From: Bdellovibrionales bacterium
Lineage (GTDB): Bacteria; Bdellovibrionota; Bdellovibrionia; Bdellovibrionales; UBA1609
NCBI GenBank assembly: GCA_965203095.1
Contig: OZ241877.1
Location: 96,001 to 160,000 of the forward strand
DNA length: 64,000 bases
Reading direction: 5' to 3'
Shown: piece after piece, positions 11,654 to 53,274 of the stretch
Position numbering within the stretch: position 1 is the stretch's first letter
Layout of the letters: each line of letters starts with the position of its first letter
Notes under the pieces: model-generated
What the model was told of the DNA's origin: nothing
Databases searched by the model: none
The model's input: only the letters and a program-made list of their open reading frames with translations
Made by a program: the position numbers and the translations under genes

Positions 11654-11661
11654 GGCTTAAT

Positions 11662-12803: not shown

Positions 12804-12825
12804 ACATCCATTATATGGACATTGT

Positions 12826-14188: not shown

Positions 14189-14213
14189 GTTAGCTCCTTA
14201 AGGTTATCAATTT

Positions 14214-14316
14214 ATACATCCATTATATGGACATTGGCCGGGAATGTCAAGTTTTTATTTCAAGTGCTCAAATATCAGCCAGAATAGGCTTTTTTTCCAG
14301 CTGAGGCTTTTGATAT
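14214..14316. repeat. about 100-bp intergenic block duplicated at about 13049..13150
   Basis: Shared gggaatgtcaag...aagtgctcaaatatcagccagaataggctttttt.ccagctgaggcttttgatat. Confidence 0.9.
14222..14250 (-). promoter_or_regulatory. consensus sigma70 promoter
   Basis: Perfect TTGACA-17 nt-TATAAT on the minus strand. Confidence 0.8.
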
Positions 14317-14344
14317 TTAAAGATTAGAGAGAAAAATAGAGGGT

Positions 14345-14986: not shown

Positions 14987-15014
14987 GGTCCCTTCTTTTA
15001 GGGTTGTTTCCTGT

Positions 15015-17672
15015 TTATCTTATCGGTTGTTTGTCCGGATCTCTTAGTCCTGTTTTCTCAAAACTGGACTTCAGTTCCTTCAATTCTTTTGAGAGGCTGT
15101 CTATTTTTTCATTGGCTGATTTTAGTTCCTTTGTATTGTCTTGAAGTTTTGCAGTGGCTTCTTTTAATTCCTGTTTAGTATTGGCCAGCTCTTTTTTAAA
15201 CTGATCGTCTGTTTTGCTGAGGGCTTTAAACTTTGCCTCTATTGTGGAATTGAGAGTTTTGAATTTTGAGAGCACATCTTTTTTAAAACTTTCTATCTTG
15301 GAATGAAGGGCTTTTATCCCAGCCCACAATGTCCCATAGATAGAGGGCCAGTCCGGGGAAACAGGCTTTCCTTTAAGCTGTAAGCTTTTTGGCAAGTCCT
15401 CCGCTATCACTCCCATTCTTTTCTTTTTAGGAAAATTGTCTTTATCCTTAAAATAATAAGTGAATAGGGGAGTATCTATTATGTCCTTCAAAGCCTTTTC
15501 CATATCATTAAAGGGACGAATATTCTTTTTATAAACTTTGGAGGATCGCCCTGTGCCTTGATATATGCAAGAGCACCTATCCTGCTCCCATGCATGACTG
15601 CTCGCACATCTTGGCTGACAGTGATTACAAGATTCATTCCAAAGATAAGAACAGGACTTACATTCCTGATCCCTAACAGACCAATTGTTTGGGCATCTAT
15701 GGACACACTGTGATCCATCCCATCTGTGAGAGGCTTGACATCTGTTTTTACATTGCGACCCGTCCCAATACTGCTGGGCAGAGCAGGCAGAGACACACTT
15801 TGCCAAAGGGGATGACCAGTTTGGCTTAGCCCCCCCACAGCGGGTCATACAGCGACTCCCATTCCAATAATAGCCGGGCATACATTTATCTTGAAGGGCA
15901 CAGACTTTATTCCCGGCGGAGTTAAATCCTCTGAGAACATCCCCCACTGGACAGGTTTGTTTCCAGCCTGTGCCACCAGTGGCAATACAAACTTTATTCC
16001 CAGAAGTGTCAAATCCTCTAAGAGTTTGGCCAGCTGGACATAACCAGCCTTGAGCTTTTACTTTAACATCTGGGGCTTTGATTTCTATTTTACCCCCCTT
16101 GATATAAGTTCCACCATTGCCAGAGATAGTCTGCCCTGTCCCCCCGGCACCGGCTCCGATAAGAGTATTATAATTCCCGGACACCTTAGCAGTCCGGCCG
16201 GCGGCATGACCTAAAAAGACATTCAAATCCCCAGAGATATAACCGCCTGTAGTTGTCCCATGATTCTTTTTTCCCGCTTCATTCCCTATAAAAACATTTC
16301 CATTAGCACCGGATCTTATATCTGCACTCCGCCCAGCACCATCCCCTAAAAAGAGATTGGTATTCCCTCTCACTGTGGCTTTGTCACCAGCATGATAGCC
16401 AAAAAAATCATTTCCAGTCCCGGACACTGTAGCTTCTTTACCGGCATGATCACCAATAAAATGGTTCTGCCCTCCGCTCACTGTGGCTTTTTTCCCAGCA
16501 TTGTCCCCAAAAAAATGATTGCCTCCAGATGAGATTGTGGCTTCTCTGCCTGAATTAGTGCCAACAAAAGTATTCATTGCCCCTGAAGTTATTTTTGTTT
16601 TATAACCCGCTTGAGAACCAAAAAAATGATGGCCTGTTCCAGGGACTTTTGCTTGATCGCCAGCCCACCTTCCAAAAAACATGTTGCTATTCCCGCTTAC
16701 TTTTGCTCCACTCCCTGATCGTTCCCCTACAAAAGCATTCCATTTCCCGCTCACTGTGGCAAATTGGCCTGTCCCGTGCCCCACAAAAACATTATTGTCC
16801 CCGCTGACATGACTACTTGTGTTTGCTCTCCCCGCCTCACTTCCTATAAAAACATTATAATCAGCCCCAGACCTTACATCTGCATGAAGGCCCGCACCTG
16901 CTCCTAAAAAAAGATTATTAGCCCCAGCGATAGTAGCCGACCTTGCCACATCATTACCAAAAGCCGTTGTGCCTGTGCCACCAAGTGATTGTGTGCTACC
17001 ACATCCAGCAAGGGTTCTTCTGCTCCCAGTTGCCTCCGCTTTATAACAGCGGTTTTTGCCCCCTGTTGTTCCTATTTCAGTGCAAGTGAAATTAGTATAA
17101 GTGCTATTAGGAGCGGACGACCATTCAATGTCTACAGTCAAAAGCCTCCCTCTGATAAAGGTCATCCCTTTTTGAATACCTGGGATAAGCATCCAAGTTT
17201 TTTTACAAGCCCCGCCTGAATAGGTATGAGCAGAAGTCCGACAATCACAGCTCCCACCATTGTCGGCAAGATTACATCTCAAAACAAAAAATCGCGGAAA
17301 AAATCCATAGCGGGAAAATATGTTGTTAGAATCATGAACATCTAAAAGATTTGTGTTGTCTGCTTTTTTTATGATTTGGATCTCTATATGATTATCTTGA
17401 GTCCCCTCCGCTAACTTTGCTTTTTTTGTGGCAGAAGGGGCCGGATATTTATTAGGAGTATTCTGATTGAGCCAGTTCTCTATTGTTTTCTGACAGCTTG
17501 TTTGTGTCCCAAACTGCTCCCAAAAAGCATTCAGTTCCCTTTCCTTATTTATTTTCTGTTGCTGTTGGGCTATCAAGGCCATGTGTTTAGCCATACCCGT
17601 CATGGCTATTACCCCAATAGTGGAGGCCACCACAACACCGGTAATAGAAAAAACCTTTATTGTTAAAAACAA
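15015..17672 (-). CDS. mosaic trimeric fibre/adhesin with C-terminal peptidase S74 intramolecular chaperone; 5' end appears frameshifted
   Basis: Pilin-like hydrophobic N-terminus; many N.F.G..AG repeats; Cys-rich repeats (CP.G..LRGF...GNKVC x2, W(D/N)GS.C x3); SS..YKKNI...MGVIAE S74 signature; coiled-coil tail. Confidence 0.8.
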   Translation of the reverse strand: MFLTIKVFSITGVVVASTIGVIAMTGMAKHMALIAQQQQKINKERELNAFWEQFGTQTSCQKTIENWLNQNTPNKYPAPSATKKAKLAEGTQDNHIEIQIIKKADNTNLLDVHDSNNIFSRYGFFPRFFVLRCNLADNGGSCDCRTSAHTYSGGACKKTWMLIPGIQKGMTFIRGRLLTVDIEWSSAPNSTYTNFTCTEIGTTGGKNRCYKAEATGSRRTLAGCGSTQSLGGTGTTAFGNDVARSATIAGANNLFLGAGAGLHADVRSGADYNVFIGSEAGRANTSSHVSGDNNVFVGHGTGQFATVSGKWNAFVGERSGSGAKVSGNSNMFFGRWAGDQAKVPGTGHHFFGSQAGYKTKITSGAMNTFVGTNSGREATISSGGNHFFGDNAGKKATVSGGQNHFIGDHAGKEATVSGTGNDFFGYHAGDKATVRGNTNLFLGDGAGRSADIRSGANGNVFIGNEAGKKNHGTTTGGYISGDLNVFLGHAAGRTAKVSGNYNTLIGAGAGGTGQTISGNGGTYIKGGKIEIKAPDVKVKAQGWLCPAGQTLRGFDTSGNKVCIATGGTGWKQTCPVGDVLRGFNSAGNKVCALQDKCMPGYYWNGSRCMTRCGGAKPNWSSPLAKCVSACSAQQYWDGSQCKNRCQASHRWDGSQCVHRCPNNWSVRDQECKSCSYLWNESCNHCQPRCASSHAWEQDRCSCIYQGTGRSSKVYKKNIRPFNDMEKALKDIIDTPLFTYYFKDKDNFPKKKRMGVIAEDLPKSLQLKGKPVSPDWPSIYGTLWAGIKALHSKIESFKKDVLSKFKTLNSTIEAKFKALSKTDDQFKKELANTKQELKEATAKLQDNTKELKSANEKIDSLSKELKELKSSFEKTGLRDPDKQPIR

Positions 17673-36187: not shown

Positions 36188-36205
36188 AAATAAAAAATAG
36201 GTTTT

Positions 36206-37582
36206 TTGATTATGCGATCGATTAAAGACAGGCTTTTCCACAGAGGATTATTTATTTATAAAATTTTTATCTCCTTAAAGCTCGCGGTTTTCTCTATTCT
36301 CACTCTGGCCATTTTAACAGGTATCGGCACTTTTATAGAGTCAAAATACAATCAGGAAATAGCCAACAAACTGATCTATCACTCCCTTTGGATGAAAATG
36401 GCTTTTTTGCTTTTAGCCATCAATTTAACAATGGTTTTAATTGATCGCTATCCTTGGAAAAAACATCAAGTGGGATTTGTTCTGGCCCATATTGGGATTT
36501 TAACTTTAATGCTGGGTTTTGTGTTCACTCAATATTTGGGTTTGGACGGAACTCTTCGTTTAAAAGAGGGGGAAAAAAGCTCTTTGGCCAGCATTTCAGG
36601 GATGGAGATCCAGATCCATTCCTCTTATGATGGAGAAAACTGGAGTTTAATTTATGAAAAACCGGTGGATATGCTCTCTTTTCGTCCCTCTGAGAAAAAA
36701 CCTTATCTCATTCAAACTGCTGGAGAAGCATTTATCATCGATCAACACATTCCCTTTGCCTTAGGCCGAGAGATTTTTAAAAACAGTGAAAAAGGGGGGG
36801 AGCCTGCCATTCGCTTTCATCTGTCTGGCCAAACAGCTCAGCTTGTGGAGTGGATGAAGTTAGATATGGGAGAAACAAGCCTTGACCGATCTTTTGGCCC
36901 TGCACTCATCCGCCTCACGAAAAATAAAAACAAAAAAACAGGCAGTAAAGCTCTCATTTTATTTGTGGAAGAGGATAAAATATTTTACTCCCTCCCACGA
37001 ACAAGGAAAAAAGCATTGCGAAAAGGGCAGTCCTTTCCCACAGGATGGATGGATCTTCAGTTTCGCTTGTTGGAGTTTTTTCCTAAAGCACAGAGGGAGT
37101 TTGTGTTTTCAGCAAAGGATCGGCCCTCTTCTAAAACATTAAAAGCCATTCGTATCTCTCACCAGGGGAAAGTGGTTTGGATAGGCCAAAACTCTTATGT
37201 TCGTTTTTTTAAAGAGGATCGAGTTTATGCTGTGGCTTATCGCAACCAAACACATAATTTAACTTTTGATATTGAGCTTGTGGATTTTAAAATGACAACA
37301 TACCCCGCCAGCAGAAAAGCCAAAAGCTATGAAAGCCAAGTTTTAGTGGAAGGTCAAAAGGCTCTTATCTCCATGAACAAACCCTTAAAGCATAAAGGTT
37401 GGACTTTTTATCAATCCAGCTTTGAGTCCTCTCCTGATGGGGCTGAACCTAATATTTCCATTTTATCTGTTAATCGAGATCCGGGAAGAGCTTTAAAATA
37501 CACCGGCTCATTTTTAATTGTTATGGGTTCAAGCCTTCTGTTTTATCGTCGCCGGAAAAAAATGGGGACCACAGCTATTTAA
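36206..37582 (+). CDS. cytochrome c biogenesis ResB/Ccs1-like protein
   Basis: SLKLAV, GTFIES, GFVLAHIG, MNKPL...GWTFYQSS, VNRDPG. Confidence 0.85.
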   Translation: MIMRSIKDRLFHRGLFIYKIFISLKLAVFSILTLAILTGIGTFIESKYNQEIANKLIYHSLWMKMAFLLLAINLTMVLIDRYPWKKHQVGFVLAHIGILTLMLGFVFTQYLGLDGTLRLKEGEKSSLASISGMEIQIHSSYDGENWSLIYEKPVDMLSFRPSEKKPYLIQTAGEAFIIDQHIPFALGREIFKNSEKGGEPAIRFHLSGQTAQLVEWMKLDMGETSLDRSFGPALIRLTKNKNKKTGSKALILFVEEDKIFYSLPRTRKKALRKGQSFPTGWMDLQFRLLEFFPKAQREFVFSAKDRPSSKTLKAIRISHQGKVVWIGQNSYVRFFKEDRVYAVAYRNQTHNLTFDIELVDFKMTTYPASRKAKSYESQVLVEGQKALISMNKPLKHKGWTFYQSSFESSPDGAEPNISILSVNRDPGRALKYTGSFLIVMGSSLLFYRRRKKMGTTAI

Positions 37583-40313: not shown

Positions 40314-41123
40314 TTAAGGAGATAATTCCGCTGGAGTTGTCCGTTTTTCTTCCTGAAATCTTTTGATAGATAGGTCTAAAAACGGGAGATGCTTATCAAT
40401 ACCGATAAAGGATCTTTTTAAACGATAAGCTGAAATTCCTGTGCTGGAACTTCCTGTAAAAGGATCCAAAACCAAATCTCCTGGTTTTGTGCTGGCCTGT
40501 AAAATTCGGCTTAAAAGTTTTAGAGGTTTTTGTGTGGGATGTTTGCCAGCTGTTTTTTCAGAAGTAGGAGTAGTGTTAATAGCCCAAACCGATCGCATCT
40601 GTTTTTCTGGCTTTTTGATAAAATCCTTCCCCCAAAAACCAAACTTCATATCTTCATAATTAAAAGTGTATTTGGCTTTTTTATCTGGACAAGCCCATAT
40701 TAAAGTTTCATGGCTGGCCGCAAAGCATCTACAACCAATATTGGGCGGAGCGTTGGGTTTATACCAGGCAATATCATTTAAAATTCTATAACCTGCCTTT
40801 TGCAAAGCAAAGCCACACTGGTAAATGGAGTGATAAGTCCCGCTGATCCAAATCGTTCCTTCTGATTTAAGCACTCGGTGGCAAGCCTTTATCCAACTCA
40901 AATGAAAAGCAAAATCCTCATCCAGCCCAGAACTTTGATCCCAATCCCCTTTATGCACATCCACTCGCCGGCCAGAATGAACAGAAAAACCACCATTAGA
41001 TAAATTATAAGGAGGATCGGCAAAAATCATATCTACAGATTTTTCTGGAAGAGATTTTAATATCTCCAAACAACTGCCCTGATAGAGAGAAAAACCATCT
41101 TCTTGATAATAGGGTTCCATCAT
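40314..41123 (-). CDS. beta-class N6-adenine/N4-cytosine DNA methyltransferase (DpnA/CcrM-like), orphan
   Basis: IFADPPY.LSNGG...KGDWD, HPTQKP, VLDPFTGS. Confidence 0.9.
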   Translation of the reverse strand: MMEPYYQEDGFSLYQGSCLEILKSLPEKSVDMIFADPPYNLSNGGFSVHSGRRVDVHKGDWDQSSGLDEDFAFHLSWIKACHRVLKSEGTIWISGTYHSIYQCGFALQKAGYRILNDIAWYKPNAPPNIGCRCFAASHETLIWACPDKKAKYTFNYEDMKFGFWGKDFIKKPEKQMRSVWAINTTPTSEKTAGKHPTQKPLKLLSRILQASTKPGDLVLDPFTGSSSTGISAYRLKRSFIGIDKHLPFLDLSIKRFQEEKRTTPAELSP

Positions 41124-41422: not shown

Positions 41423-42547
41423 TTAAAAAACAGAATCTCCTCTTTCAACAGAATCTACTAATTCTCTTAATTTTCTGCAATCTCCTTTTAAATATTCTTT
41501 AAAAAAGTCAATACTTTTAGAAGAATTAATCTCAATTTTATCTGGGCTGATTTTTGTTAAACTGACTATTTCATTCATAGATTTAGATCTTTGAAATTGC
41601 TCAATTTTTTTTATAAAAGTCTTCTTTTCGATTTTATCTGGATCAACAATAAGCATTTTTGTATTTAAATCAGAACTTAAATTTTGTATTAAAATATTGT
41701 TAATATATCTATCTTGAAAACTATAACCTACTGTAATAAATACACTTGCTGTTTTTAAAACTTCATTAAAAGCTCCTAAAAGTGATAAAAAAGGATCATA
41801 AGATTGAATCTTTGAACCAGAACCAAAAATAATTAAAGGTTTTTCTTCAGTTATTTCCTGTTTAATAATTTCTTCTTTTTTATCAAAATGCCAGTCAATA
41901 GAACCATGAAGTTTATAAATTTTTATTTTTTCAGGATTTTGTGGATTGTTAAAATCACCCACCCAAAGCTTTTGAGAAAAACCAGTATATACAAGATGTT
42001 CATTTTCATTATTAAAATTTTTCTCAAACATTATATCATAATTAAGAGAAAATATGTTTATATCAAATTGCTCATCCGATTGAGTTAAATTGTCAAACGG
42101 TTCTAAAATATTTTTAGCTTTCTCTTTATCAAACTGTGTCCACTTATGGACAAGCTGATTATATATAAAATCATAAAAATCTTGAAAAATATTTTTGTTT
42201 TCAGCTTCCCACAAAGTAATTTTATTATTCCAGTTCCCTATTAAAGGAGGGGGAACAATATACTCTCTATCTATTATTTGTTGCAATACTAATACAAAAT
42301 CCTCAATATTTGTCACTTCAGACACTTTCGCTTCTGTATCTTTTAAACCGTATTGATATAGAAGGCTTTGTATTATAAAATTGTATATATCAAGAAAGTA
42401 TTTGCTATTTGGCCAAGAAATTTCAGAATCAGATATAGATTCTTTCAGATCAAAAAGCATTTCTTTTGACAAAAAACATCCGGCACCTTTTGATGCTCCT
42501 GCACCAAAAAGAAACACTACCTTTTCAAATAAGTTTTTTAAACTCAT
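41423..42547 (-). CDS. stand-alone SIR2-family (SIR2_2) putative NADase
   Basis: FLFGAGAS, SLNYD, KLHGS, GYSFQD motifs; ATG at 42547 overlaps the Argonaute TGA (ATGA). Confidence 0.9.
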   Translation of the reverse strand: MSLKNLFEKVVFLFGAGASKGAGCFLSKEMLFDLKESISDSEISWPNSKYFLDIYNFIIQSLLYQYGLKDTEAKVSEVTNIEDFVLVLQQIIDREYIVPPPLIGNWNNKITLWEAENKNIFQDFYDFIYNQLVHKWTQFDKEKAKNILEPFDNLTQSDEQFDINIFSLNYDIMFEKNFNNENEHLVYTGFSQKLWVGDFNNPQNPEKIKIYKLHGSIDWHFDKKEEIIKQEITEEKPLIIFGSGSKIQSYDPFLSLLGAFNEVLKTASVFITVGYSFQDRYINNILIQNLSSDLNTKMLIVDPDKIEKKTFIKKIEQFQRSKSMNEIVSLTKISPDKIEINSSKSIDFFKEYLKGDCRKLRELVDSVERGDSVF

Positions 42548-44595
42548 AAAAACCACAATGTTTGTTTTGCAGTCTTTGAATCAGGAAATTTACTGTCACT
42601 AAAATATGGGGTCATTTCAGCTATTTTTTTAGAGTATAAAACTGTTACTGGTTCTGCTTTTTGTTTTACACTAACCCAATACATTCTGGAAAATTGATAA
42701 ATTTGATCTATAAGAAGTTTAATATCTCCTTTTGAGGGCTTTTCCTGACTTGTTTTTGATATTTTTATTTGAATGGGATAAGGGAAATCTCCAATCTTTG
42801 CTCTGGTTATATTTGAGTATCTCTCATTATTACACAGGAGATAGTGCCATTTACTCTTAAGGATAACACAAGTTCCACTGACTGGCATTTTTCCATTATA
42901 AGAAATATCAAACGGGATGTAATCCTTACTTTCTGTAATATGCAAAACAATGTAAGGAATTTTAAGATTTAACTGATTCAGAGTGTTCTCTATTGTTCTG
43001 CTCTCTTTTTTATTCATTTTTTTGTAATAGTGGATAATGATTCTTTTAAAATTATTTATATCTATTTTTGATTTTGATATTTGCAATATAATATCTTTAA
43101 GAAACTTTGAAATATCCTCAATAGAATGAGCTTGTGAAGCATCAAATCGAACAAAAGTTCCATCATTTTTAAATGTCATGGTTGTGCCGATGCAGGTATT
43201 TTGATTCTTTCTAAAGGCTCCTACACCAATAATTAAATCACTTTCTATAGGACGGCTTAACCTCCAAGGGATTCCTCCCAGCTTAGCTAAAACAGCAATC
43301 CCAATATTGGACAAAAAGTAATTAAAGTTTGGTTTGATTATATTATCTCTGTAAATAACTTGAGAAGTGATATTTTCCTTCAATAATAACTCCTTCAATT
43401 TATAATAGATTCCTTTCTTATCGGAATCAAGATCATCTTTTTTGATTCGGGAAATATAAATCCCAACATATTTTATATTTCGATCAAAATCCAATGAAGC
43501 TAATTTCTGTTTGATTTCTGATAAAGGATTCTCTTTTTTAAATTTTATTGTTTTTTCTTTATCAAGATCTATATTTAATTCAACAAATCGAGAAAGCCCG
43601 GGGAAGCCTTTAATTCCTTTTTTAAAGTAAGCATAAAGTTTATTTGCAATATCTTTGTCATCTTCATGAAATATAAAAAAGAAACTATACTGCCTTTGTT
43701 CAACAGGCCGATAGGGGCCATACTCTTTAATTCCATAATAAGGACTAAAGTGAGTTTTGTTCTCACCAAATGTCAACAAATTAGAGTCTCGTTTTGCGTA
43801 TATTATTTGCTCATTGCTAATTGTTTGAAAGCCAGATCTAAAAATGGATATTTTCTCATTTTTATTTATATTAATATTCTTCCCTTTAACATATTTTTCA
43901 TAAAAATCAGAAATCTCATTATAAAACAGAGAATATTTATTTGGTGGTTTATGGAATGGTTTTGACCATCCCTTTTGTGCCAAAAATTCATTACTTACAA
44001 TCGCTTTTGTTTTTTTGGATTCTTTTTCTTCTGGAGTTAATTTATCAAAAGGCTTAACAGTATTTCCCACAAGAGCTTTTTTAATAACACTATGGAAATT
44101 TTTATAAGAACTTAGAGGTTTTTTTGTAGTGTCCTTTTTCCCTAAATAGGAAATGCTGAGATTCCAAAAATTCCCGGCAGAGCAAGCATATTGTTTTTTA
44201 GGGTGGATAATACGGACTTTAAATTTTTTATATGTTATTAAGTCATATCTATTGGATTCATCTTGTTTTTCAAGTAGAACAAGATCACCTATAAAATCCT
44301 TATAAACTATTAATTTTTGTTCTAAAAAATAATTGTAAAAGGATTTTTTTAAAATATATTTAACAACTTTAAAGTTTTCTTTATCAATTTCTATTGGTTC
44401 TGAACCTTTAAATTTTTCTAAAGCCCAATACACTCTCTCATTAAAATCTTTAAATTTATCAGGGTTCAGAAGTTTTTTTGGAATACTGTCATAGTCTTCT
44501 TGATTGTCTTTTGAATAATAAATCATTATCTTTTCAAAAGATAATTCAAAAGGTATCAGGTTAATTGTTAAATTAGAATTCATAGTTTGGCTCAT
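42544..44595 (-). CDS. long prokaryotic Argonaute (MID-PIWI), catalytic tetrad degenerate
   Basis: YYKLK...SQ...AKLGGIPW.L MID 5'-phosphate pocket; PIWI strands IIGVGA and IIHYYK; P.PI.I, QIYQFSRMYW, PVTVLYS; terminal LWFL; 683 aa. Confidence 0.9.
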   Translation of the reverse strand: MSQTMNSNLTINLIPFELSFEKIMIYYSKDNQEDYDSIPKKLLNPDKFKDFNERVYWALEKFKGSEPIEIDKENFKVVKYILKKSFYNYFLEQKLIVYKDFIGDLVLLEKQDESNRYDLITYKKFKVRIIHPKKQYACSAGNFWNLSISYLGKKDTTKKPLSSYKNFHSVIKKALVGNTVKPFDKLTPEEKESKKTKAIVSNEFLAQKGWSKPFHKPPNKYSLFYNEISDFYEKYVKGKNININKNEKISIFRSGFQTISNEQIIYAKRDSNLLTFGENKTHFSPYYGIKEYGPYRPVEQRQYSFFFIFHEDDKDIANKLYAYFKKGIKGFPGLSRFVELNIDLDKEKTIKFKKENPLSEIKQKLASLDFDRNIKYVGIYISRIKKDDLDSDKKGIYYKLKELLLKENITSQVIYRDNIIKPNFNYFLSNIGIAVLAKLGGIPWRLSRPIESDLIIGVGAFRKNQNTCIGTTMTFKNDGTFVRFDASQAHSIEDISKFLKDIILQISKSKIDINNFKRIIIHYYKKMNKKESRTIENTLNQLNLKIPYIVLHITESKDYIPFDISYNGKMPVSGTCVILKSKWHYLLCNNERYSNITRAKIGDFPYPIQIKISKTSQEKPSKGDIKLLIDQIYQFSRMYWVSVKQKAEPVTVLYSKKIAEMTPYFSDSKFPDSKTAKQTLWFL

Positions 44596-44678
44596 TTATT
44601 TTTATTGCCTTTTGTTTTTCATAGTGTCCAACAAGTTATCTATTATAAAATTCAGCATAAGTCTCATAAATTTTATTT

Positions 44679-47330
44679 TTATTGCTTTGTTTTAAAAACT
44701 TTGTTTAGGGAATCTCGCCATTTGTTTTGAAAGATAAGATCAAATGTCATTTTTTTGTCTTGAATTTCAATAGTTCCGGCCCCAAAGGATTTTTGAGAGT
44801 ATTTTGTAAAAAGCTCAAAAAGCTTTCTCTTGTATTCTGTATCAAGGTTTCCCATAAGATGTTGCCCTTTTGTTTCTAAAATGGAAAAAGAGGCATTACC
44901 CTTTTTAGATGACCTGACACAAACTAAAAAATCAGGATAGATTTTATTTTTTTGCCAGCCCTGTAAATACCAATCCTGCTTTTCTATAATCCTATGCCAC
45001 CATTTAATGGCTGAATCCTCGTCCAAATACCAAGCCACTTTTTTTTCCAAATCGTTAAACTTAAACTCCTCTTTGTAAACACTTTCAAACAGAGAAAGTT
45101 GCAAATCCATATTATTTTGCCTTCTCAATACAGGACTTCCTTGGGAAATAAAGAGATTCAAGCTTTCTGCCATTTCCCAATTCAAGTCGGGATCGCCTGC
45201 ACTCACCAGTTTAAATATAATTTCATGATTTTTTAATTTTTCCCTAAAAAGCTTTTCTGTTTTTTGACTGATTTGCTCTTGAATATTATTTCTTAAAAAA
45301 TCCAAAATATAAAATCGGCTCAAATAAACCCGCTCTTTTCCATATTTCCTTTTTAATGAAGAAAGAGCCTTATCCACTATCACACTTGCAGACCAAAGAT
45401 TAGGAACAATGTCAGAAAGCCTTTGACACATAAAACCAAAATCCATATTAAAATCCTCCGGCATATCCTCCTCTTCACTGCCATGGAAAGAAGAGATCAA
45501 TTCCAACTGTTTTTTTATATCCACCTGTGTATGAGATATATCGGGAATTTTCTCATCTAAATTCGGAGTTCGATTTGATTTTAACTTTGAATAATCAATG
45601 TCAAATAGCAAATCTTCCTCATAACTTAACTCCTTTAAGATATTCCCTTTTTTTAAGAGAACTTTTGGCAAAAAGATTTTTAAACCTCTAAAGGGTTTTC
45701 TTCTTCGGATATTCACTTCCCGAACAGGGGGCTTATGATTATCAGGCATTTTTATTTCTCCAGCCAAGCCATCCATTCCTTCGTTTTCTAAGCCTTTTCG
45801 GATTCCCTCCACAGTTTGTTTTGTATCTTGATCCATACAAAGCACATAAGATTGATTTAAAGATTCTATGTTGGTTCTTCTTGTCTCCGGTTGCCTTAAA
45901 ACTCGCCCTATCATTTGCTCAATAGCCAGAGTGGACTTTGTTTTAGATAAAATCGTCAAAATATAAGCAAAGGGGCAATCCCAACCCTCTTTTAAGGCTT
46001 CCTTAGTGATTATGTATTGGACTTTAGAATATTTAGAGAGCAAGTCCTCATTTTTCAACTCGTCCTTTGTGGCAGATTTGACTTTAATTTCCGCAGGATC
46101 CACATTAAAGTTTTTTATCAAATACTCTCGGACATCTTCGGAATGAATAAATTTCTTTTCCCTTTGATCAGCTCCCGTTCTCTCCACCCTGACAAGTAGG
46201 ATAGGACGAATATAGCGACTGTCCTTGGCCTGCAACTTGATGGCATTTTTTGAAAGTTTTTGCAAAATTTCATGACCTTTAGCTAAAGCCTTTTTCCAAT
46301 CCTTATTTTTTAAGTTATAAATGTTAATGGGGAGTTTTATCATTTCCTCTTTTTTTAATTCCCCACCAGATACAGAAACCAAAACATTGCTCTCATGAGA
46401 TTTTTTGTTGGGTGTGGCCGAAAGCTCTAAAATAAACCGAGGATTAAAATCCATTAAGGCTTTTTTTGCCTTTTCTGTATAAGCCCTGTGGCCTTCATCA
46501 ATTACAATTAAAGGTTGAACCAGTTTTAAAACATTGCCCAAACTGTGCTTTAAGGGGATTTTCTTTAAATTTCTGGAAAGGATGGAGGCTTTAAAGCTGT
46601 GAGTGTCAAGGTTAGGACAGATTTCAATCAGTTTTTGACTGCTCTGGTAGTCATCAATTTCCGGAAAAAAATATGGGAATTTTCCGGAATCTTTGAATAT
46701 TCTTAAAGTTTCTTTTGACTGCCTTCCGGCGGATTGAAGCATTAACAACAAGACACATAAATAATTTTCCACATCGGAAGGGTGAAAACTATCGGTTTTT
46801 TGCAGAATTTTAACTTTTCTACCTGAGGCCCGATCCAAAGTCTGCCTGTAAAGGCTTTCTCTGTCAGAAAGAGCTTTTAAAGTTTGTTTGTAAATGGTAT
46901 CACTGGGAACTACCCACAGAACAAGGCCATTGTTTCTTTCAAAAAAATCTGTGTTGATCCTCTCTATACTGCCAGCTCCAAGAATGGTTTTTCCTCCTCC
47001 TGTAGGAACTTTAAGACATATATTAGGGACGGGGCGACAAAGGCCACTCAGTCGATCTTTGTAGAGAGGTGCTGTCTCCCCTATTTTTGTTAAAAAAGAG
47101 GGAAGTCGTTTTTGCCTATTCAGCTCATCCCAGGCTCTCTTGCAAAAATTAAAATCCTCTGAATCCCACTGGACAGGAAGATTATCTTTGTTTCTGATTT
47201 CAGCTAAAGCCAAGGCATTGTGTCGCTTTTCCTTCAAAATATTAAGATAGAACGAAAGCCTTTCAAGAACAGCCTGCTGATAATCTTTTAATTCCACTTT
47301 AAAGTCCTCTGTTTTTTCTAAATTGGTCAC
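44679..47330 (-). CDS. Type III restriction subunit Res (SF2 helicase plus PD-(D/E)xK nuclease)
   Basis: LKDYQ, VPTGGGKT, DEGH, SATP, LKEGWDCP, QMIGRVLR, YPDF...ETKG. Confidence 0.9.
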   Translation of the reverse strand: MTNLEKTEDFKVELKDYQQAVLERLSFYLNILKEKRHNALALAEIRNKDNLPVQWDSEDFNFCKRAWDELNRQKRLPSFLTKIGETAPLYKDRLSGLCRPVPNICLKVPTGGGKTILGAGSIERINTDFFERNNGLVLWVVPSDTIYKQTLKALSDRESLYRQTLDRASGRKVKILQKTDSFHPSDVENYLCVLLLMLQSAGRQSKETLRIFKDSGKFPYFFPEIDDYQSSQKLIEICPNLDTHSFKASILSRNLKKIPLKHSLGNVLKLVQPLIVIDEGHRAYTEKAKKALMDFNPRFILELSATPNKKSHESNVLVSVSGGELKKEEMIKLPINIYNLKNKDWKKALAKGHEILQKLSKNAIKLQAKDSRYIRPILLVRVERTGADQREKKFIHSEDVREYLIKNFNVDPAEIKVKSATKDELKNEDLLSKYSKVQYIITKEALKEGWDCPFAYILTILSKTKSTLAIEQMIGRVLRQPETRRTNIESLNQSYVLCMDQDTKQTVEGIRKGLENEGMDGLAGEIKMPDNHKPPVREVNIRRRKPFRGLKIFLPKVLLKKGNILKELSYEEDLLFDIDYSKLKSNRTPNLDEKIPDISHTQVDIKKQLELISSFHGSEEEDMPEDFNMDFGFMCQRLSDIVPNLWSASVIVDKALSSLKRKYGKERVYLSRFYILDFLRNNIQEQISQKTEKLFREKLKNHEIIFKLVSAGDPDLNWEMAESLNLFISQGSPVLRRQNNMDLQLSLFESVYKEEFKFNDLEKKVAWYLDEDSAIKWWHRIIEKQDWYLQGWQKNKIYPDFLVCVRSSKKGNASFSILETKGQHLMGNLDTEYKRKLFELFTKYSQKSFGAGTIEIQDKKMTFDLIFQNKWRDSLNKVFKTKQ

Positions 47331-47393
47331 CCATGAACATTATACCATAAACAAAAATTCGGTGGTAAGAGTTCAAGGTATTCTCGTCCTGAA

Positions 47394-47569
47394 CAAGATT
47401 TTCTGGATTCCCGCTATCAAAGGAATGACTGTTCTGCAAGATTTTCTGGATTCCCGCTATCAAAGGAATGACTGTTCTGCAAGATTTTCTGGATTCCCGC
47501 TTTCGCGGGAATGACTGTTCTGCAAGATTTTCTGGATTCCCGTTTTCGCGGAAATGACTATTCTGCAAG
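47394..47569. repeat. four tandem 43-bp REP-like units between mod and res
   Basis: caagattttctggattcccgct.tc...ggaatgactgttctg x4, containing a GGATTCCCGC-tttc-GCGGGAATGAC-type palindrome. Confidence 0.92.
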
Positions 47570-47649
47570 TTTTTCTTGATTTCCATTCGCATGGGAATCA
47601 AAAAGTCTAAGGGCTTTTTGGTAAAATAGAAAAAAACACTACCCATTAC

Positions 47650-49308
47650 TTAAATTCCTATAATTTTATAAATGGCAGTGGGAAGTTGGCAAAATTGAAT
47701 ACCGTATTTTTTCTTAAGATTTTTTTGAGTGATATAGCTTGCCGTAGCATAAACCAAGTTGATTTTTTTGGAATTTTTATTGAATTTTTGAACCGCTTCC
47801 GCAAGATCCAAATGCAAGGCACTTTTTTTGCTCATTAAAAAATCCAAATCAGGTTTATATACAAGATGAAAACTGTAATTTTCCGTTTCACCGATAAACC
47901 AAGATGGGCTAATTTTAGGGACAACATTCAAACTTTTTCCTGTTGCCGTGTAAAAAATATATTCCGCCAGTTGTTTGTAGTCGGGAAGTTTGCCCCTTAG
48001 CATATTCTCCGCATTGATTTCATCCCCCAAAGAACAATAAGTAAGGGAACCACCTAAGCCTTTTTTTAGTTTTTTATCCTTGGCTTTTGGGATGCCCTTA
48101 ATCACACGGCGAACCCGCTCCGTCGTGATTTTATCCGCATAATCCTCACACTCAACCAGAATAAATTTGCGATGGCCTCCGTCCTCTTTATTTAAGTCTA
48201 AAACTGCATGAGCTGTCGTGCCAGAACCGGCAAAAGAATCTAAAATAATAGAGTCTTTATCACTTACAATTTTAAACAAACGGATCAGCAAATTAACAGG
48301 CTTGCTATTATTAAAAATTTTTTTACCGAATATTCCTTTTTGCTCATTTGTAGCATCAGTTGTAGTTGCTAAATCATAAAAAATAGTCCGCTCTTTTATT
48401 GTTTTTGTCTGTCCGTTCAATTCATCAAGGTATTCTACTTCATAAGGGGTCCAGAGGTTTTTTCTTTTTTCCCAATGAATATGCTCTTTATCTAAATTCA
48501 CCGGACGGGTCCGCCAGTTGCCGTCCCTTCCATCAGGTGCTTTAGGATAAAAATCTTTGCCATCAGGATCTTTAATGGAATAAAACATTGTTGGACGATC
48601 CTCACGGTAAGCATTAGATCCCCATTTTTCCAACTTTGTAAAACGGCACTTTCTCCCACTTTTAACTTTGTTAAAATATTTTGAGTTGATCTCAATAGTT
48701 CGAAAAATCATGCGAAAACTGTTACTTTTTCGATAGCATAATATATAATCATGCTCTCTGGCAAAATACTCACTGTCTTGACCACCACCTGCTTTTTTTC
48801 GCCAGACTATCTCATTAACAAAATTTTCTTCCCCAAAAATTTCATCCATTATCATTCTCAATCTATGTTGTTCATTGTCATCAATAGAAATAAAAATCAC
48901 TCCATCTTCAGATAGCAATTCCTTTAATAACTGGAGCCTTGGCCACATCATGCAGAGCCATTTGTCATGTCTTTCCTGATCATCTGTTCCAATGCCGTTT
49001 TGTTTTAGCCATTCCTTTATTATGGGACTGTTGACCCTGTCGTTGTATTTCCAGCCTTCGTTTCCGGTGTTATAGGGTGGATCAATATAAATACATTTGA
49101 CTTTCCCGGAGTATCTGGGCAAAAGGGCTTTTAAGGCATGAAGATTGTCTCCATGGATGACTAAATTATCATTTAGACTTAGTGCTGATTTTCCCGTTTT
49201 TTTGTCTGACGAAAGAGATTTTTTTACATCCACTTTAAGTGTTCGGAAAGGAACTCCAAGATGATGAGAATAGATGATGGATTTTCCCTTAAAATCTAAA
49301 AAAGGCAT
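47650..49308 (-). CDS. Type III DNA methyltransferase Mod
   Basis: GDNL.ALKAL, IYIDPPYNTG, FISIDDNE, KP..L, ILDSFAGSGTTAHA; upstream of res. Confidence 0.92.
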   Translation of the reverse strand: MPFLDFKGKSIIYSHHLGVPFRTLKVDVKKSLSSDKKTGKSALSLNDNLVIHGDNLHALKALLPRYSGKVKCIYIDPPYNTGNEGWKYNDRVNSPIIKEWLKQNGIGTDDQERHDKWLCMMWPRLQLLKELLSEDGVIFISIDDNEQHRLRMIMDEIFGEENFVNEIVWRKKAGGGQDSEYFAREHDYILCYRKSNSFRMIFRTIEINSKYFNKVKSGRKCRFTKLEKWGSNAYREDRPTMFYSIKDPDGKDFYPKAPDGRDGNWRTRPVNLDKEHIHWEKRKNLWTPYEVEYLDELNGQTKTIKERTIFYDLATTTDATNEQKGIFGKKIFNNSKPVNLLIRLFKIVSDKDSIILDSFAGSGTTAHAVLDLNKEDGGHRKFILVECEDYADKITTERVRRVIKGIPKAKDKKLKKGLGGSLTYCSLGDEINAENMLRGKLPDYKQLAEYIFYTATGKSLNVVPKISPSWFIGETENYSFHLVYKPDLDFLMSKKSALHLDLAEAVQKFNKNSKKINLVYATASYITQKNLKKKYGIQFCQLPTAIYKIIGI

Positions 49309-49600
49309 ACTTTTCCTTAATAATTATATCCCGTCCCAAACCAGATGGGATTGTGTTTATGCGATCGGTTAAAGACCAGCTTCACGGGCAATTAAATAAT
49401 AACATAATGAAAAGGTAAAGGCAAACATCTATCCTGGTTTTGTCTAAAGTTGTTCTTAAGTTCTTAAGAAATAATGCAATATGTTAATCGCCTTCTTGCA
49501 TCTAATAGGAAATCATAAGTTAAGGCTATAGACTTGGCCTTTGTTGGTCCGCCGACCGTCAAAAGAAAAAAAAGCACTTTTGTCGCCTCATAATGTTAAG

Positions 49601-49674
49601 TGGAGGTGATGGCCGGATTTGAACCGACGTGAGCGGATTTGCAGTCCGCCGCCTAACCCCTCGGCCACATCACC
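49601..49674 (-). tRNA. tRNA-Cys (GCA)
   Basis: GGTGATGTGGCCGAGGGGTTAGGCGGCGGACT-GCA-AATCCGC...GGTTCAAATCC..ATCACCTCCA. Confidence 0.95.
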
Positions 49675-49764: not shown

Positions 49765-49975
49765 CTGGATTCCCGCTTTCGCGGGAGCTAAAAAGCCTAC
49801 GGGCTTTTTTAACAGGCTGAGGCTTTTTCATGGGCGACTATGGTAGTGGATTCCCGCTCAATGCGGGAGCTAAAAAGCTTGGGGGGCTTTTTGGCAAACT
49901 AAGCCGTTTTTAAATAAGTTTTTTTGGATTCCCGCTCAAGGAGGCGGGAAAGACTGGCTCGGCGGGAAGGACGGG
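49765..49975. repeat. cluster of REP-like palindromes plus a MITE right end
   Basis: GGATTCCCGC..GCGGGAGCTAAAAAGC x2, a third degenerate copy, and TTTTTCATGGGCGACTA. Confidence 0.75.
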
Positions 49976-51176: not shown

Positions 51177-52193
51177 TCAAAGAGAGCTGATAAACTTCCT
51201 CCAATCAGAATTTCTCCAGTTGAGATTTCCCGTATTGAAAATATAGGCGGAATCATGGGAAAATTTGTTTATACCTCTAAACTTGATATCCCCTTCAATC
51301 TCTTCTCTCTTTTTTATATCTTTTAAAAAAGAACGGCTATATTTCCCTTGCCATGAGTGGATTGTGTAATGTTTGATTCCTTTTTTCCCTTTATATTTAT
51401 ATTGCTCTGATTGAAAATCCTTTGTTAAGACAAAACCAGCAATATAAGCAGGAATTTTCTCTAAGTTAGGGATAGCATTAAAAAAAGCTCCAGCCTCTTC
51501 TTTTTTAAAATAACCTTTTTCAACCGCTCTTTTTAGCAATTTGTCTTTAAAAACACTTATCTTTTTAAAAAAAGAAAAAATATGACTTTTTTCCAGAATC
51601 AACTGGACCAGAATATGACAATCTGAATGGTGAAATTGAGTTCCCGGAATATCTAACCACATTCCATTTAGGCTTGTCGTTTTTATTCCAATAGTTTTTT
51701 TAGGCTTTCTAAATTTTAAATCTTCCCTCTTTTTAATTTCATAAATATCAGTATGAATAAATTTTTTTAACTCTCCTGCCCTGTGTTCAAGCTTTGATTC
51801 TATATTAAATTTTTCCCATAAAAATTTCTGAAATGCTTTTTCGCCAAGGTAGCCTCTTGTAGTGTCCGCCCATTTTTGATTAAAATCCCTTTGTCTTGAG
51901 CTTCCAAAATCTGTCTCAGCAAAATTCTTTAATGATTTTAATGCATTTAAGCATACCTCCTCATAGTCTGATACTGTTAAAAAAACAGTATTGTTTTTAA
52001 TTCGTTTTTCAATCCATTCCGCACTTTCTTTCTCATTGGCAAATTCTCCTGAAATATAAGATTTTTTATAGAACTTCTCACTATTGAGCTGATTTAAACC
52101 AAGAAGATCAGAAATTTTCTTAACATGATTTTTATTTGGTATCATTTTATAAACCCATTTCCATTTGAGTGGAGTCCGCAAAATCTTCCGCAA
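51177..52193 (-). CDS. putative Type II restriction endonuclease (likely start 52145)
   Basis: Directly downstream of a C5-MTase, AT-rich, G.LGE.AF helix with D...(I)GIK nuclease-like motif. Confidence 0.6.
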   Translation of the reverse strand: MRKILRTPLKWKWVYKMIPNKNHVKKISDLLGLNQLNSEKFYKKSYISGEFANEKESAEWIEKRIKNNTVFLTVSDYEEVCLNALKSLKNFAETDFGSSRQRDFNQKWADTTRGYLGEKAFQKFLWEKFNIESKLEHRAGELKKFIHTDIYEIKKREDLKFRKPKKTIGIKTTSLNGMWLDIPGTQFHHSDCHILVQLILEKSHIFSFFKKISVFKDKLLKRAVEKGYFKKEEAGAFFNAIPNLEKIPAYIAGFVLTKDFQSEQYKYKGKKGIKHYTIHSWQGKYSRSFLKDIKKREEIEGDIKFRGINKFSHDSAYIFNTGNLNWRNSDWRKFISSL

Positions 52194-53274
52194 ATGTTCT
52201 TTCTGTAGAGATATAAGGGTAAGGAATTTTAAATAAAGTTTTTATCATAGACTCAAAAAGAAGACAGGACATTTTTGGCGGGACAGCCATCCCAATCTGC
52301 CTTCTAACACTTCCAATATTCCCCTCAAAAACAAAATCATCAGGGAAGGTTTGAAGTCTGGCCCTTTCTCTGTTAGTCAAGGGGCGATCTTCCTTCCAAT
52401 GATAACCATAAGTCCCACCGCCTCCGCTCCCTGTGATCGTATAAGAGGGTTTATTTTCATCTAATCGTCTATATATATGGCTTAATCGAGTAGCAGAGTG
52501 AATCTTCAAATCCTCTGGCATGTCTGAGTTCCATATATTCTGCCATGGTTTTATATATCTCAGCCGCTCAACAACTTTACCAGAAACCTTTATAAAATCA
52601 TGGTTTCTTTCCGTAGGGCTTATTGGAGGTTGTTCCAAAGCAGTCTTTGCACTGACACAATTCCCAATATGGCTTGGCTGGGGAATGTTGAAAACCAAGT
52701 TCAAATCCCGCCTCACACCGGCAATAATAATCCTATGTCTCATTTGAGGGATACCGTATTCCTCAAACCGATATTTGTGAAATGTCAAATGATAGCCTTT
52801 TCCAGCACTTTGAAGATCATTTAGTATTTTGAGAAAAGCTTTTCCTTTATTTGCACTAAGAATACCTCCCACATTTTCTGCAAGAAAAGCTTTGGGGTTC
52901 CACTGCTTTAAAACCTCTATCCCGTATTTGTATAAAGGGCCGAATTTCCCTTTGACGCCTTTATGCTCTCCAACAATGCTGAAATCATTGCAGGGAAAGC
53001 CATAAGAAAAAATGTCAATAGGGCTTAAAGATCCTATATTTAGAGTTCTGACATCCTGATGGAGCACGAGGGCCAAAGAGGATACATTTTTTTTGTAAGT
53101 CAAGCAACTGTCTCTATCGGAGTCACAAGCCCATTCATGCTTGATTTTATAAATGTTCTTTTTGTCCTCCACAAGGGCTTTTTTAGCCCCTAAGCTCATG
53201 CCCCCTGGACCGCAAAACAGCTCCCCATATTTTAACTGAATTGTCTTTTTCATAGCTGGTTTCTTTATACCCAC
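52147..53274 (-). CDS. DNA (cytosine-5)-methyltransferase (likely start 53253)
   Basis: ELFCGPGG, GFPCNDFS, ENV, PQ.R.R, RE.ARLQTFPDDF, QIGMAVPP. Confidence 0.95.
   Translation of the reverse strand: MGIKKPAMKKTIQLKYGELFCGPGGMSLGAKKALVEDKKNIYKIKHEWACDSDRDSCLTYKKNVSSLALVLHQDVRTLNIGSLSPIDIFSYGFPCNDFSIVGEHKGVKGKFGPLYKYGIEVLKQWNPKAFLAENVGGILSANKGKAFLKILNDLQSAGKGYHLTFHKYRFEEYGIPQMRHRIIIAGVRRDLNLVFNIPQPSHIGNCVSAKTALEQPPISPTERNHDFIKVSGKVVERLRYIKPWQNIWNSDMPEDLKIHSATRLSHIYRRLDENKPSYTITGSGGGGTYGYHWKEDRPLTNRERARLQTFPDDFVFEGNIGSVRRQIGMAVPPKMSCLLFESMIKTLFKIPYPYISTERTFAEDFADSTQMEMGL

Follow-up and report, generated by a model that had tools for sequence, protein, structure and literature searches.

A BPAS-like Argonaute-SIR2 pair behind a Type III restriction-modification operon in a Bdellovibrionales bacterium

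The locus and its closest described systems

PrrC is an abortive-infection nuclease whose gene lies within the EcoprrI Type I locus, and its physical control by the surrounding restriction-modification (RM) system is established. In a classical Type III RM system of the EcoP15I kind, mod and res form an operon. Its upstream gene encodes a methyltransferase, Mod, that carries DPPY and FxGxG motifs, and the next gene a restriction subunit, Res, with an SF2 helicase and a C-terminal PD-ExK nuclease. BPAS systems combine a long-B prokaryotic Argonaute (pAgo) with a SIR2_2 protein, bAgaS, as in GbBPAS (Song et al. 2023, Nat Commun, PMC10620215). In the parts of that paper drawn on here, BPAS are described as simple operons of two or three genes, GbBPAS works in E. 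coli without a partner RM system, and characterised inactive pAgos draw 5′-phosphorylated RNA guides from the transcriptome. AgaPP-associated long-B pAgos reside on mobile elements of Bacteroidota, in which intervening genes are often gained and lost (NAR 2025, PMC11724360). The portion of a further source used here lists Type III Res and Type I HsdS orthogroups among the proteins encoded in pAgo 'operons' (PMC6299218).

We analysed a stretch of 64,000 nucleotides from a Bdellovibrionales bacterium (contig OZ241877.1, positions 96,001 to 160,000), referred to as the window. A sequence-only reading of this DNA had described four co-oriented minus-strand genes, mod, res, pAgo and SIR2. All four ORFs are present at the coordinates given below, and the PADLOC run that the same reading called for returned strong matches to MTase_III, REase_III, pAgo and Aga_SIR2. 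We consider it reasonably probable that the four genes are two complete defence systems with separate histories, lying head to tail, with a foreign BPAS cassette docked behind a resident restriction operon, the two being layered but uncoupled. The locus would then be a new example of a known abortive-infection system beside an ordinary Type III RM system, in a little-studied lineage with small genomes.

Gene content of the two modules

Mod (47650-49308, minus strand, 552 aa) matches PADLOC MTase_III (1.8e-167), PDLC03644 over its full length, and Pfam N6_N4_Mtase (2e-39). It appears intact, with the sequences IDPPYNTG and SFAGSGTT, in which we take DPPY and FAGSG to be the DPPY and FxGxG motifs. 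Res (44679-47330, minus strand, ORF of 883 aa) matches PADLOC REase_III (7.5e-242, protein residues 12-873 on profile positions 1-876 of 883) and Pfam ResIII. Its start is most likely the GTG at 47297, giving 872 aa, as relatives begin MELKDYQ. The protein contains PTGGGKT, DEGH, SAT and QMIGRVLRQ (QxxGR), followed by YPDF...ILETKG in a PD...ExK arrangement, presumably the motifs of an SF2 helicase and of a C-terminal PD-ExK nuclease. The locus therefore encodes a Mod with N6/N4 beta-class motifs and, after it, a Res with SF2 and PD-(D/E)xK regions, the same arrangement as in classical Type III systems. It differs from them in the two-gene predicted abortive-infection cassette behind res and in a spacer of ~350 nt, with five host REP copies, that splits mod from res. 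Against the first reading, mod and res are thus not adjacent, with about 320-350 nt between them. At 47351-47608 a REP-like hairpin element of the host is repeated five times in tandem, each copy being 43 nt long (repeat family D1), and the core of this element occurs 42 times in the genome and 0 times in the reversed control. A 115-aa ORF in the spacer (47299-47646) is the translation of these tandem repeats, and Pfam and PADLOC profile searches assigned it to no family.

The Res family is native to this bacterial genus. The window genome has a paralogue elsewhere with 78% identity to the window Res, separated from it by a dS of 0.87. Copies with 73-74% identity are found in three of nine same-genus genomes (G002, G007 and G009), all three of which carry the Res family without any Ago. 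Identity of the window Mod to the copies compared ranges from 60% to 85.5% at the amino acid level, and the closest Mod is that of the Ago-less G007.

Ago (42544-44595, minus strand, 683 aa) matches the PADLOC pAgo profile PDLC02385 (1.8e-160, protein residues 7-683 on profile positions 2-674 of 674) and Pfam Piwi. The likely start is the fifth codon, at 44583, giving 679 aa and matching both the related locus L001, described below, and a 679-aa database form. The AlphaFold model (pLDDT 88.1, pTM 0.83) has RsAgo as its best structural match (E 6e-28, TM 0.64-0.67), over the full length and ~800 aligned columns, and predicts the architecture of a full-length Argonaute (N, PAZ-like, MID and PIWI), not of a short pAgo. 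The best PDB sequence matches are AfPiwi, EcAgo and RsAgo, all of which we take to be catalytically inactive. At what are presumably the slicer motif positions, GxDV reads G459 (glycine in 140 of 142 relatives) and RDG reads H522-Y523-Y524 (HYY, with the histidine invariant), so that the DEDX slicer residues appear to be lost. These features bear out the earlier description of an inactive long Argonaute, here of the long-B type. The MID residues Y397, K401, Q412 and K438 are kept in 140-142 of the 142 relatives and align with the AfPiwi pocket region, which suggests a Y-K-Q-K pocket for a 5′-phosphorylated guide. This Ago is absent from all 60 relatives and all 400 sampled genomes of the phylum, being found only in the window genome, and a metagenome scan returned no Ago above ~48% identity over the full length.

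SIR2 (41423-42556, minus strand, ORF of 377 aa) is a bAgaS-like SIR2_2 effector, with matches to PADLOC Aga_SIR2 (6.2e-67) and Pfam SIR2_2. Read from the ATG at 42547, the protein has 374 aa, and this start codon overlaps with the stop codon of Ago in the ATGA that had been noted. All 26 partners compared share the NAD-site residues (GAGAS, N172, D174 and H217) without variation, and the site is predicted to be intact; N172 probably corresponds to GbbAgaS N155 and ThsA N112. For each of the eight Ago relatives that are closest (60-78% identity), a SIR2 relative (63-79%) is present on the same contig, as judged by equal contig size, and SIR2 pairing requires 3 changes on a FastTree tree of 142 Agos. 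SIR2_2 thus lies directly downstream in the same operon and co-evolves with Ago, in a partnership that is strict and stable. The profile matches, the overlap and the stable pairing are all in keeping with the proposed role of SIR2 as a BPAS-type effector of Ago.

The pair resembles GbBPAS in several respects. A full-length, predicted slicer-dead Ago lies upstream of and overlaps a SIR2_2 gene, the two proteins co-evolve, the NAD-site asparagine and histidine are kept, and the YKQK 5′-phosphate pocket is as in RNA-guided inactive pAgos. Unlike the simple operons described for BPAS, the predicted pair is without an evident promoter of its own and is placed behind a Type III RM system. The host also differs, being a small-genome bacterium and not a gammaproteobacterium.

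The Type III pair would methylate the cell's own DNA and cut unmethylated incoming DNA, with Ago-SIR2 as an AT-rich passenger of foreign composition at the tail of the restriction operon. By analogy with GbBPAS, RsAgo and EcAgo, Ago would load 5′-phosphorylated small RNAs from the transcriptome and would bind and restrain SIR2. Sensing of guide-matched invader DNA would then release NAD+ depletion, and the infected cell would stop or die. If the genes are co-transcribed, a single locus would provide restriction first and suicide second. Here we infer the RNA guides, the NADase activity, abortive infection, co-transcription and the order of acquisition. Nothing indicates that Res feeds guides or triggers to Ago. 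As with PrrC/EcoprrI, a suicide effector accompanies an ATP-dependent RM operon, within or beside it, so that one locus holds two layers of defence. In PrrC/EcoprrI the effector is under physical RM control, whereas the two layers in the window are predicted to be uncoupled.

The res-Ago junction, the flanks and the upstream neighbours

The AT-rich spacer between res and Ago (44584-44678, minus strand) was previously given as 83 nt, which is correct for the first ATG; it becomes 95 nt if Ago starts at the fifth codon. In L001 the corresponding spacer is only 33 nt. A TATAAT at 44647-44642, put forward as a possible separate promoter for Ago-SIR2, is present but lacks an acceptable -35 hexamer, and scanning the spacer on the minus strand yielded neither a promoter nor a terminator. 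DNA as AT-rich as this holds many promoter-like sites (42, with 32.7 expected), and the RNA fold of the spacer has a z of -0.31. Transcription probably runs, at least in part, across both systems, as the res-Ago spacer yielded no terminator. The difference in composition remarked on earlier is real: G+C is 0.363 in mod and 0.361 in res and drops to 0.284 in Ago and 0.262 in SIR2, with 0.391 for the window.

Directly 5′ of the block and on the same strand lies a tRNA-Cys (GCA) gene (49601-49674, minus strand; ARAGORN; Rfam tRNA, 62 bits), the 3′ end of which faces mod. The 3′ end of a tRNA gene in such a position is a typical site of island insertion. The 3′ 23 nt of the tRNA have no second copy anywhere in the window, and a search for an integrase, att repeat or other mobility gene bounding the four-gene block found none. 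An imperfect direct repeat of 32 nt, with copies at 36204 and 49351 that are 84% identical, was considered as a pair of att sites and rejected, since housekeeping genes lie between the copies. Furthermore, aroA and the amidohydrolase gene are far apart in four same-genus genomes, and therefore no empty site is definable.

The AgaPP-associated pAgos offer a further comparison, the window Ago being a 32-42% relative of these proteins. AgaPP-type relatives have variable defence cargo, very often Type I or III RM, directly upstream and co-oriented, as at the window. The window locus differs from them in the fixed SIR2 partner of its Ago. An integrase, PrimPol and PriCT helicase are present in many of the 32-42% Ago relatives; among the window ORFs scanned there is no integrase, VirE-N PrimPol (AgaPP) or PriCT helicase. 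Among relatives, Type I, IIG-like and Type III genes are interchangeable upstream of Ago.

For the Ago-SIR2 pairs themselves, 13 of 24 lineages at 95% dereplication have readable upstream DNA and are informative. A lack of enrichment of Type III RM beside homologous pairs had been named as one of two findings that together would refute a four-gene unit, and essentially no enrichment is seen. Type III genes lie upstream in 2 of the 13 (the window and L001), Type I genes in 2 and other genes in 9, and at 70% identity dereplication Type III is reduced to 1 of 11 lineages, as the window and L001 merge. The four genes thus do not co-occur across the Ago-SIR2 relatives. On the same 142-Ago tree, a Type III neighbour upstream requires 11 changes and a Type I neighbour 20, and Ago clusters of >95% identity have Type I, Type III or other genes upstream. 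The restriction neighbour of Ago-SIR2 is unstable. Restriction genes of some type are nevertheless directly upstream and co-oriented in 5 of the 13 informative lineages, which could reflect selection for linkage rather than mere clustering in defence islands.

Histories of the two modules and readings of their adjacency

L001 has the same four-gene order, orientation, short spacers and G+C step as the window, in flanks unrelated to those of the window, and its genome is related to the window genome only at family or order level (AspS 48%, NuoF 71% identity). Its mod-res gap is 60 nt, without the repeat array. Nucleotide identity between the two loci is 84.6% for Ago-SIR2 and 75.1% for res. The NG86 dS values are 0.46 for Ago and 0.53 for SIR2, in comparison to 1.79 for Res and 1.41 for Mod, and identity at four-fold degenerate sites is 0.76 and 0.75 in comparison to 0.49 and 0.56. 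Expressed as identity in excess of chance, this amounts to 0.64 and 0.57 for Ago-SIR2 against 0.30 and 0.40 for mod-res. Ago-SIR2 is thus 2-4 fold less diverged synonymously than mod-res, a contrast that the extreme skew of Ago-SIR2 towards AT (GC3 0.16-0.23) may exaggerate, even though the modules remain apart in identity above chance. The central part of Mod has no DNA-level alignment with the L001 Mod. Along the final ~450 nt of res, sliding identity between the loci climbs gradually, without an abrupt step that would mark a recombination breakpoint.

Among the best 120 Res matches listed (down to ~45% identity), and using equal contig size as the criterion, a Res of the window family is absent from the contigs of six among the eight closest Ago-SIR2 relatives. 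By the same criterion and among the same listed matches, three of nine close-clade Ago-SIR2 members share a contig with this family. The third of these contigs (length 741166) probably holds both modules, as Ago P0006 and Res P0157 lie on contigs of equal size. On a quick Res tree, the three Res sharing a contig with Ago are not a clade and the Ago-linked rows require 3 changes. All three rows belong to a single supported clade of 16 rows, and their relative order there matches that of their Agos. The dS contrast and the 3 changes on the Res tree do not fit one evolutionary history for the four genes; Ago-SIR2 and mod-res have discordant histories, of different ages between the window and L001. 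As a separate observation, both modules recur together in L001 and probably on the third contig, and their adjacency persists or recurs beyond the expectation of pure chance.

These comparisons also show how, for an Argonaute family, a true partner can be told apart from a habitual neighbour: SIR2 requires 3 changes and matches in divergence, whereas restriction genes require 11-20 changes and have a 2-4 fold older synonymous divergence. Such a separation guards against reading each tight row of defence genes as one machine.

We next weigh the ways in which the adjacency could have arisen. That it is an artefact, with AT-rich foreign DNA wrongly joined to res in a metagenome-assembled genome, might be suspected from the sharp G+C step at the junction and from the two-contig, MAG-like assembly. 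We give this practically no credence: short DNA contigs from three runs of one sample cross the junction without a difference (a 1803-base contig spanning 43033-44835 with zero differences), and the same junction occurs in L001, a separate assembly. Very improbable, in our judgement, is the composite unit proposed in the sequence-only reading, in which the dead Ago would receive guides or targets from Res cleavage or translocation products, with SIR2 as a second line where restriction fails. In its favour, all four genes point the same way and the res-Ago spacer yielded no terminator, L001 has the same order with its short spacer, which fits a single transcript, and PrrC with EcoprrI is a precedent; Type III Res and Type I HsdS are moreover among the pAgo 'operon' proteins in the part of PMC6299218 used here. 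However, Type III genes are upstream in 2 of 13 lineages and neither Type I nor Type III RM in 9 of 13, and the interchangeability of Types I, IIG-like and III upstream argues against a specific tie to Res. The modules also differ in depth of divergence and the Res tree is not congruent, the Ago-linked Res being no clade. Finally, GbBPAS is active in E. coli without RM, and inactive pAgos use 5′-phosphorylated RNA from the transcriptome, according to the portions of PMC10620215 drawn on. A Mod-Res-pAgo-SIR2 functional unit is therefore not supported, and the comparisons favour the fallback of that reading, co-location in a defence island, given the unstable RM neighbour and the discordant divergence.

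It is fairly unlikely that the four genes formed a mobile block once and moved as a unit, the modules still working independently and mod-res being later replaced or homogenised by recombination with resident Type III paralogues. Such a history would account for the match in gene order, orientation and G+C step between two genomes whose flanks are unrelated, and the multi-copy RM family in these genomes supplies recombination partners. The unalignable centre of Mod and its 60-85.5% amino acid range are as expected for exchanged mod alleles, and the three Ago-linked Res rows fall in one supported clade in the order of their Agos. No recent conversion is visible, however, at a dS of 0.87 between Res and its own-genome paralogue. 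On the Res tree this history would also require that Ago-SIR2 was lost five times or more, or that several replacements took place, and the bounds of the block lack an integrase, att repeat or other mobility gene. Separate systems placed head to tail, with BPAS docked behind the resident operon, thus remain our preferred reading. In line with it, the res tail is a docking place for other cargo. Behind the res paralogue of the window genome lies a different AT-rich cassette, made up of a pentapeptide-repeat gene, low in GC and co-oriented, then a gene for a nucleotidyltransferase and one of 124 aa, and behind the res copy of G002 lies a low-GC HEAT and REase_MTES_1575 gene.

A wider proposal, which we regard as distinctly unlikely, is that BPAS and other AT-rich cassettes for abortive infection dock preferentially, and under selection, at the 3′ tails of restriction operons that depend on ATP, whether Type I, IIG-like or III. 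The cassette would be expressed from the operon and functionally tuned by it. For example, ends or single strands made by restriction might serve as targets of the dead Ago, or loss of restriction might unleash SIR2. The order of res followed by Ago-SIR2 on older RM genes would then reflect repeated docking, not shared descent. If true, this would have consequences for how the assembly and regulation of layered immunity are understood.

The four genes and their junctions

The sequence-only reading had described four minus-strand open reading frames, and all were confirmed at exactly the positions it gave: mod (47650-49308), res (44679-47330), Ago (42544-44595) and SIR2 (41423-42556). Pfam and PADLOC assigned them to a Type III methyltransferase, a Type III restriction subunit, a pAgo and an Argonaute-associated SIR2 (E-values 6e-67 to 7.5e-242). 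Mod contains DPPY and FAGSG motifs, and Res contains the SF2 helicase motifs and a C-terminal PD...ExK motif. The ATGA shared by the Ago stop and the SIR2 start codon was likewise seen. The res-Ago spacer measures the claimed 83 nt to the first ATG, but 95 nt to an alternative start, which is that of L001 (a relative's locus with the same gene order) and of the 679-aa database form. The TATAAT hexamer reported in this spacer is present but lacks an acceptable -35 hexamer. We found no terminator-like hairpin in the spacer, and nothing unusual in its RNA structure (z = -0.31). Ago-SIR2 was expected to be more AT-rich than res, and the G+C values bear this out (Ago 0.28, SIR2 0.26, mod and res 0.36, window 0.39; GC3 0.23 for Ago and 0.16 for SIR2). 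Since short DNA contigs (three runs, one sample) cover 43033-44835 without difference, an assembly artefact at the junction of res with the AT-rich Ago is ruled out.

The earlier view of mod and res needs correction: ~350 nt stand between them. Five tandem 43-nt copies of a REP-like hairpin (47351-47608) fill this spacer, and further copies of the hairpin lie at 49765-49786 and 49924-49945. Its core, GGATTCCCGC-TTTC-GCGGGAAT, occurs 42 times in this genome vs 0 times for the reversed control. The array is absent from the mod-res spacer of L001; it might attenuate or stabilize the mod-res transcript. A 115-aa open reading frame in the spacer is no more than the repeats in translation. Just ahead of res, at 47368-47339, is a promoter-like site (TTACCA-18-TATAAT with TG).

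Ago-SIR2 as a BPAS-type system

Ago and SIR2 form a BPAS-type system, namely a long-B pAgo with a SIR2_2 effector. Ago covers the full length of the PADLOC pAgo profile, and its AlphaFold model (pLDDT 88.1, pTM 0.83) aligns to Argonautes over the whole length, with long-B RsAgo as the top match (E 6e-28, TM 0.64-0.67). The solved proteins closest to it in sequence are AfPiwi, EcAgo (of a BPAN system) and RsAgo. When 142 full-length relatives were aligned, two putative slicer motif positions could be placed, and these read G459 and H522-Y523-Y524. The 5'-phosphate pocket (Y397, K401, Q412, K438) is kept in 140-142 of the 142, and the SIR2 residues GAGAS, N172, D174 and H217 in 26/26 partners. 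For each of the eight database proteins that share 60-78% identity with Ago, a SIR2 relative (63-79%) is found on an equal-sized contig.

The account of GbBPAS by Song et al. (2023, PMC10620215) includes a SIR2_2 protein that is toxic by itself, is restrained by and co-purifies with Ago, and depletes NAD+ upon the presence of an invader plasmid; characterized inactive pAgos are described there as using 5'-P RNA guides against single-stranded DNA targets. By analogy, a GbBPAS-like mechanism is most likely here: Ago would take 5'-P RNA guides against single-stranded DNA and would restrain SIR2 until an invader is sensed, whereupon NAD+ would be depleted.

Restriction systems as partners or neighbours

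To survey upstream genes, we assembled 160 loci around Ago relatives (80 from species genomes, 80 from metagenomes), clustered their 1776 ORFs and used PADLOC to name the 75 most frequent clusters. Of 142 full-length Agos including that of the window, 106 could be scored on the upstream DNA available. Co-oriented and within two genes upstream of Ago were Type I restriction-modification (RM) in 29/106, Type III RM in 18/106 and other genes in 59/106. On a FastTree Ago tree, SIR2 partnership changes 3 times, Type III upstream 11 times and Type I upstream 20 times, and upstream systems differ even among Agos >95% identical. Such near-identical Agos, immediately preceded by Type I, Type III or other systems, are found in L015-L160 (loci of 32-42% Ago relatives), where the gaps to Ago are often -8 to 50 nt. 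Between restriction gene and Ago, these loci often hold small genes (PDC-S05, PDC-S18, PDC-M59B, PD-Lambda-2_B). The RM-linked cases are mostly 32-42% relatives without SIR2, carried on Bacteroidota mobile elements that also encode PrimPol and PriCT. On Bacteroidota elements, defence genes between primase and Ago are often gained and lost (2025, PMC11724360), and the pAgo-operon proteins given by Ryazansky et al. (2018, PMC6299218) already include Type III restriction endonuclease and HsdS orthogroups.

The sequence-only reading had proposed that the Type III RM may be functionally coupled to Ago-SIR2, which predicts enrichment of such systems upstream of Ago-SIR2 pairs. This comparative prediction fails, and coupling is unlikely. 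SIR2-paired Agos form 24 lineages at 95% dereplication, 13 with readable upstream DNA, and Type III RM lies upstream in 2/13 (window, L001). Type I RM does so in another two (L022, where it overlaps Ago by 8 nt, and L083), a co-oriented HTH and two-methyltransferase set in one (L009/L092), and Type I RM on the opposite strand in one (L002); seven of the 13 have no recognized restriction genes upstream.

In L001 the four genes recur in unchanged order and show the same G+C step (spacers 60 and 33 nt), which gave a first impression of transfer as a single unit. Its flanks are unrelated to the window, with IleRS on one side and, on the other, an 880-aa Type IIG/ISP-like methylase-specificity protein (13560-16202; PADLOC REase_MTase_IIG 3.2e-133). 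Because this gene and, ~1.4 kb beyond it, a HEC-09 NYN-domain gene come after the block, the L001 block also lies in a defence island. Its genome is a relative only at the family or order level (AspS 48% and NuoF 71% identity, vs 59-65% and 82-85% for same-genus genomes). Divergence between the loci contradicts single-unit transfer. Ago and SIR2 are 78% and 79% identical in amino acids, with NG86 dS of 0.46 and 0.53, four-fold-site identity of 0.76 and 0.75, and excess over chance of 0.64 and 0.57; the corresponding values are 74%, 1.79, 0.49 and 0.30 for Res, and 60%, 1.41, 0.56 and 0.40 for Mod. Nucleotide identity is 84.6% for Ago-SIR2 and 75.1% for res. From this contrast in dS and identity, the Ago-SIR2 modules appear to share a much more recent ancestor than mod/res. 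Either separate docking events placed the cassette behind homologous res genes, or the restriction half of an old block was replaced, in which case recombination with resident paralogues would have swapped it. The window Mod is closest to that of the Ago-less genome G007 (85.5% in amino acids), and the window Res to its own-genome paralogue (79%, dS 0.87). Sliding identity between the window and L001 revealed no sharp breakpoint.

As a family, Res is native to the host lineage. The same chromosome has another copy elsewhere, at 78% identity, copies at 73-74% occur in 3/9 other same-genus genomes, and about forty database relatives are 57-81% identical; this Ago was found in 0/60 relatives and 0/400 sampled genomes of the phylum. 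Co-location in the close Ago clade was inferred indirectly, from contigs of identical nucleotide size. Among the best 120 Res relatives, only two Ago-carrying contig sizes recur, 2313606 (L001, Res 74%) and 741166 (P0157, Res 69%), placing this Res family on Ago's contig in 3/9 members including the window; the six other contigs could carry a Res <~45% identical. At 832 aa, P0157 is short at its C-terminus, where the ETKG nuclease motif is followed straight away by unrelated residues that end the protein; it might have been clipped by cassette insertion or a frameshift. When 40 Res proteins were placed on a quickly computed maximum-likelihood tree, three changes were needed for the three Ago-linked Res rows, and the window Res groups with Res from contigs without an Ago or SIR2 relative.

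The most likely reading of the four-gene row is a resident Type III RM whose tail received a BPAS cassette by horizontal transfer, with both making up a small islet of layered defence that follows a tRNA gene (tRNA-Cys, immediately 5' of the block). The two are probably read through together and functionally independent. A residual oddity is that in the window and L001 alike the cassette is docked at this one position, behind restriction genes whose divergence is far older. Because of this repetition, and because 5/13 readable BPAS lineages have co-oriented restriction genes ahead of Ago, there is a modest chance that restriction-operon tails are selected docking sites.

Flanking features and other cargo behind res

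A Type II RM (51177-53274; a 375-aa cytosine-5 methylase overlapping a 338-aa REase_II, PADLOC 2.9e-52) is inserted between aroB and aroA, vs a contiguous purD-aroB-aroA in same-genus G002. At 40314-41123, 300 nt beyond SIR2, is a 269-aa CcrM-like N6-adenine methylase; it has no restriction partner close by and might act as an orphan or cell-cycle enzyme. An imperfect 32-nt direct repeat (84% identity) has copies 13.1 kb apart, one at the start of a ResB-like ORF (36204-36235) and one 44-75 nt upstream of the mod ATG (49351-49382); it is probably no att pair, because housekeeping genes are enclosed.

The tail of res hosts other cargo too. Behind the res of the genome's second Type III RM (L186, G000:C1:320000-337000, locus coordinates 6576-12959; Res 78%, Mod 69% identical) come three genes of low GC (0.22-0.28) in the same orientation, for a pentapeptide-repeat protein, a Pol-beta-type nucleotidyltransferase and a 124-aa ORF, followed by YhgA-like transposase and PDC-S29 genes; the three may form a toxin-antitoxin or defence cassette. 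The G002 res copy is followed by a low-GC gene for a 669-aa HEAT and REase_MTES_1575 protein, and the G007 copy by housekeeping genes. In G009, another same-genus genome, one res lies between two Type III methylase genes (L189, locus coordinates 6522-12704), both of whose products are 58% identical to the window Mod.
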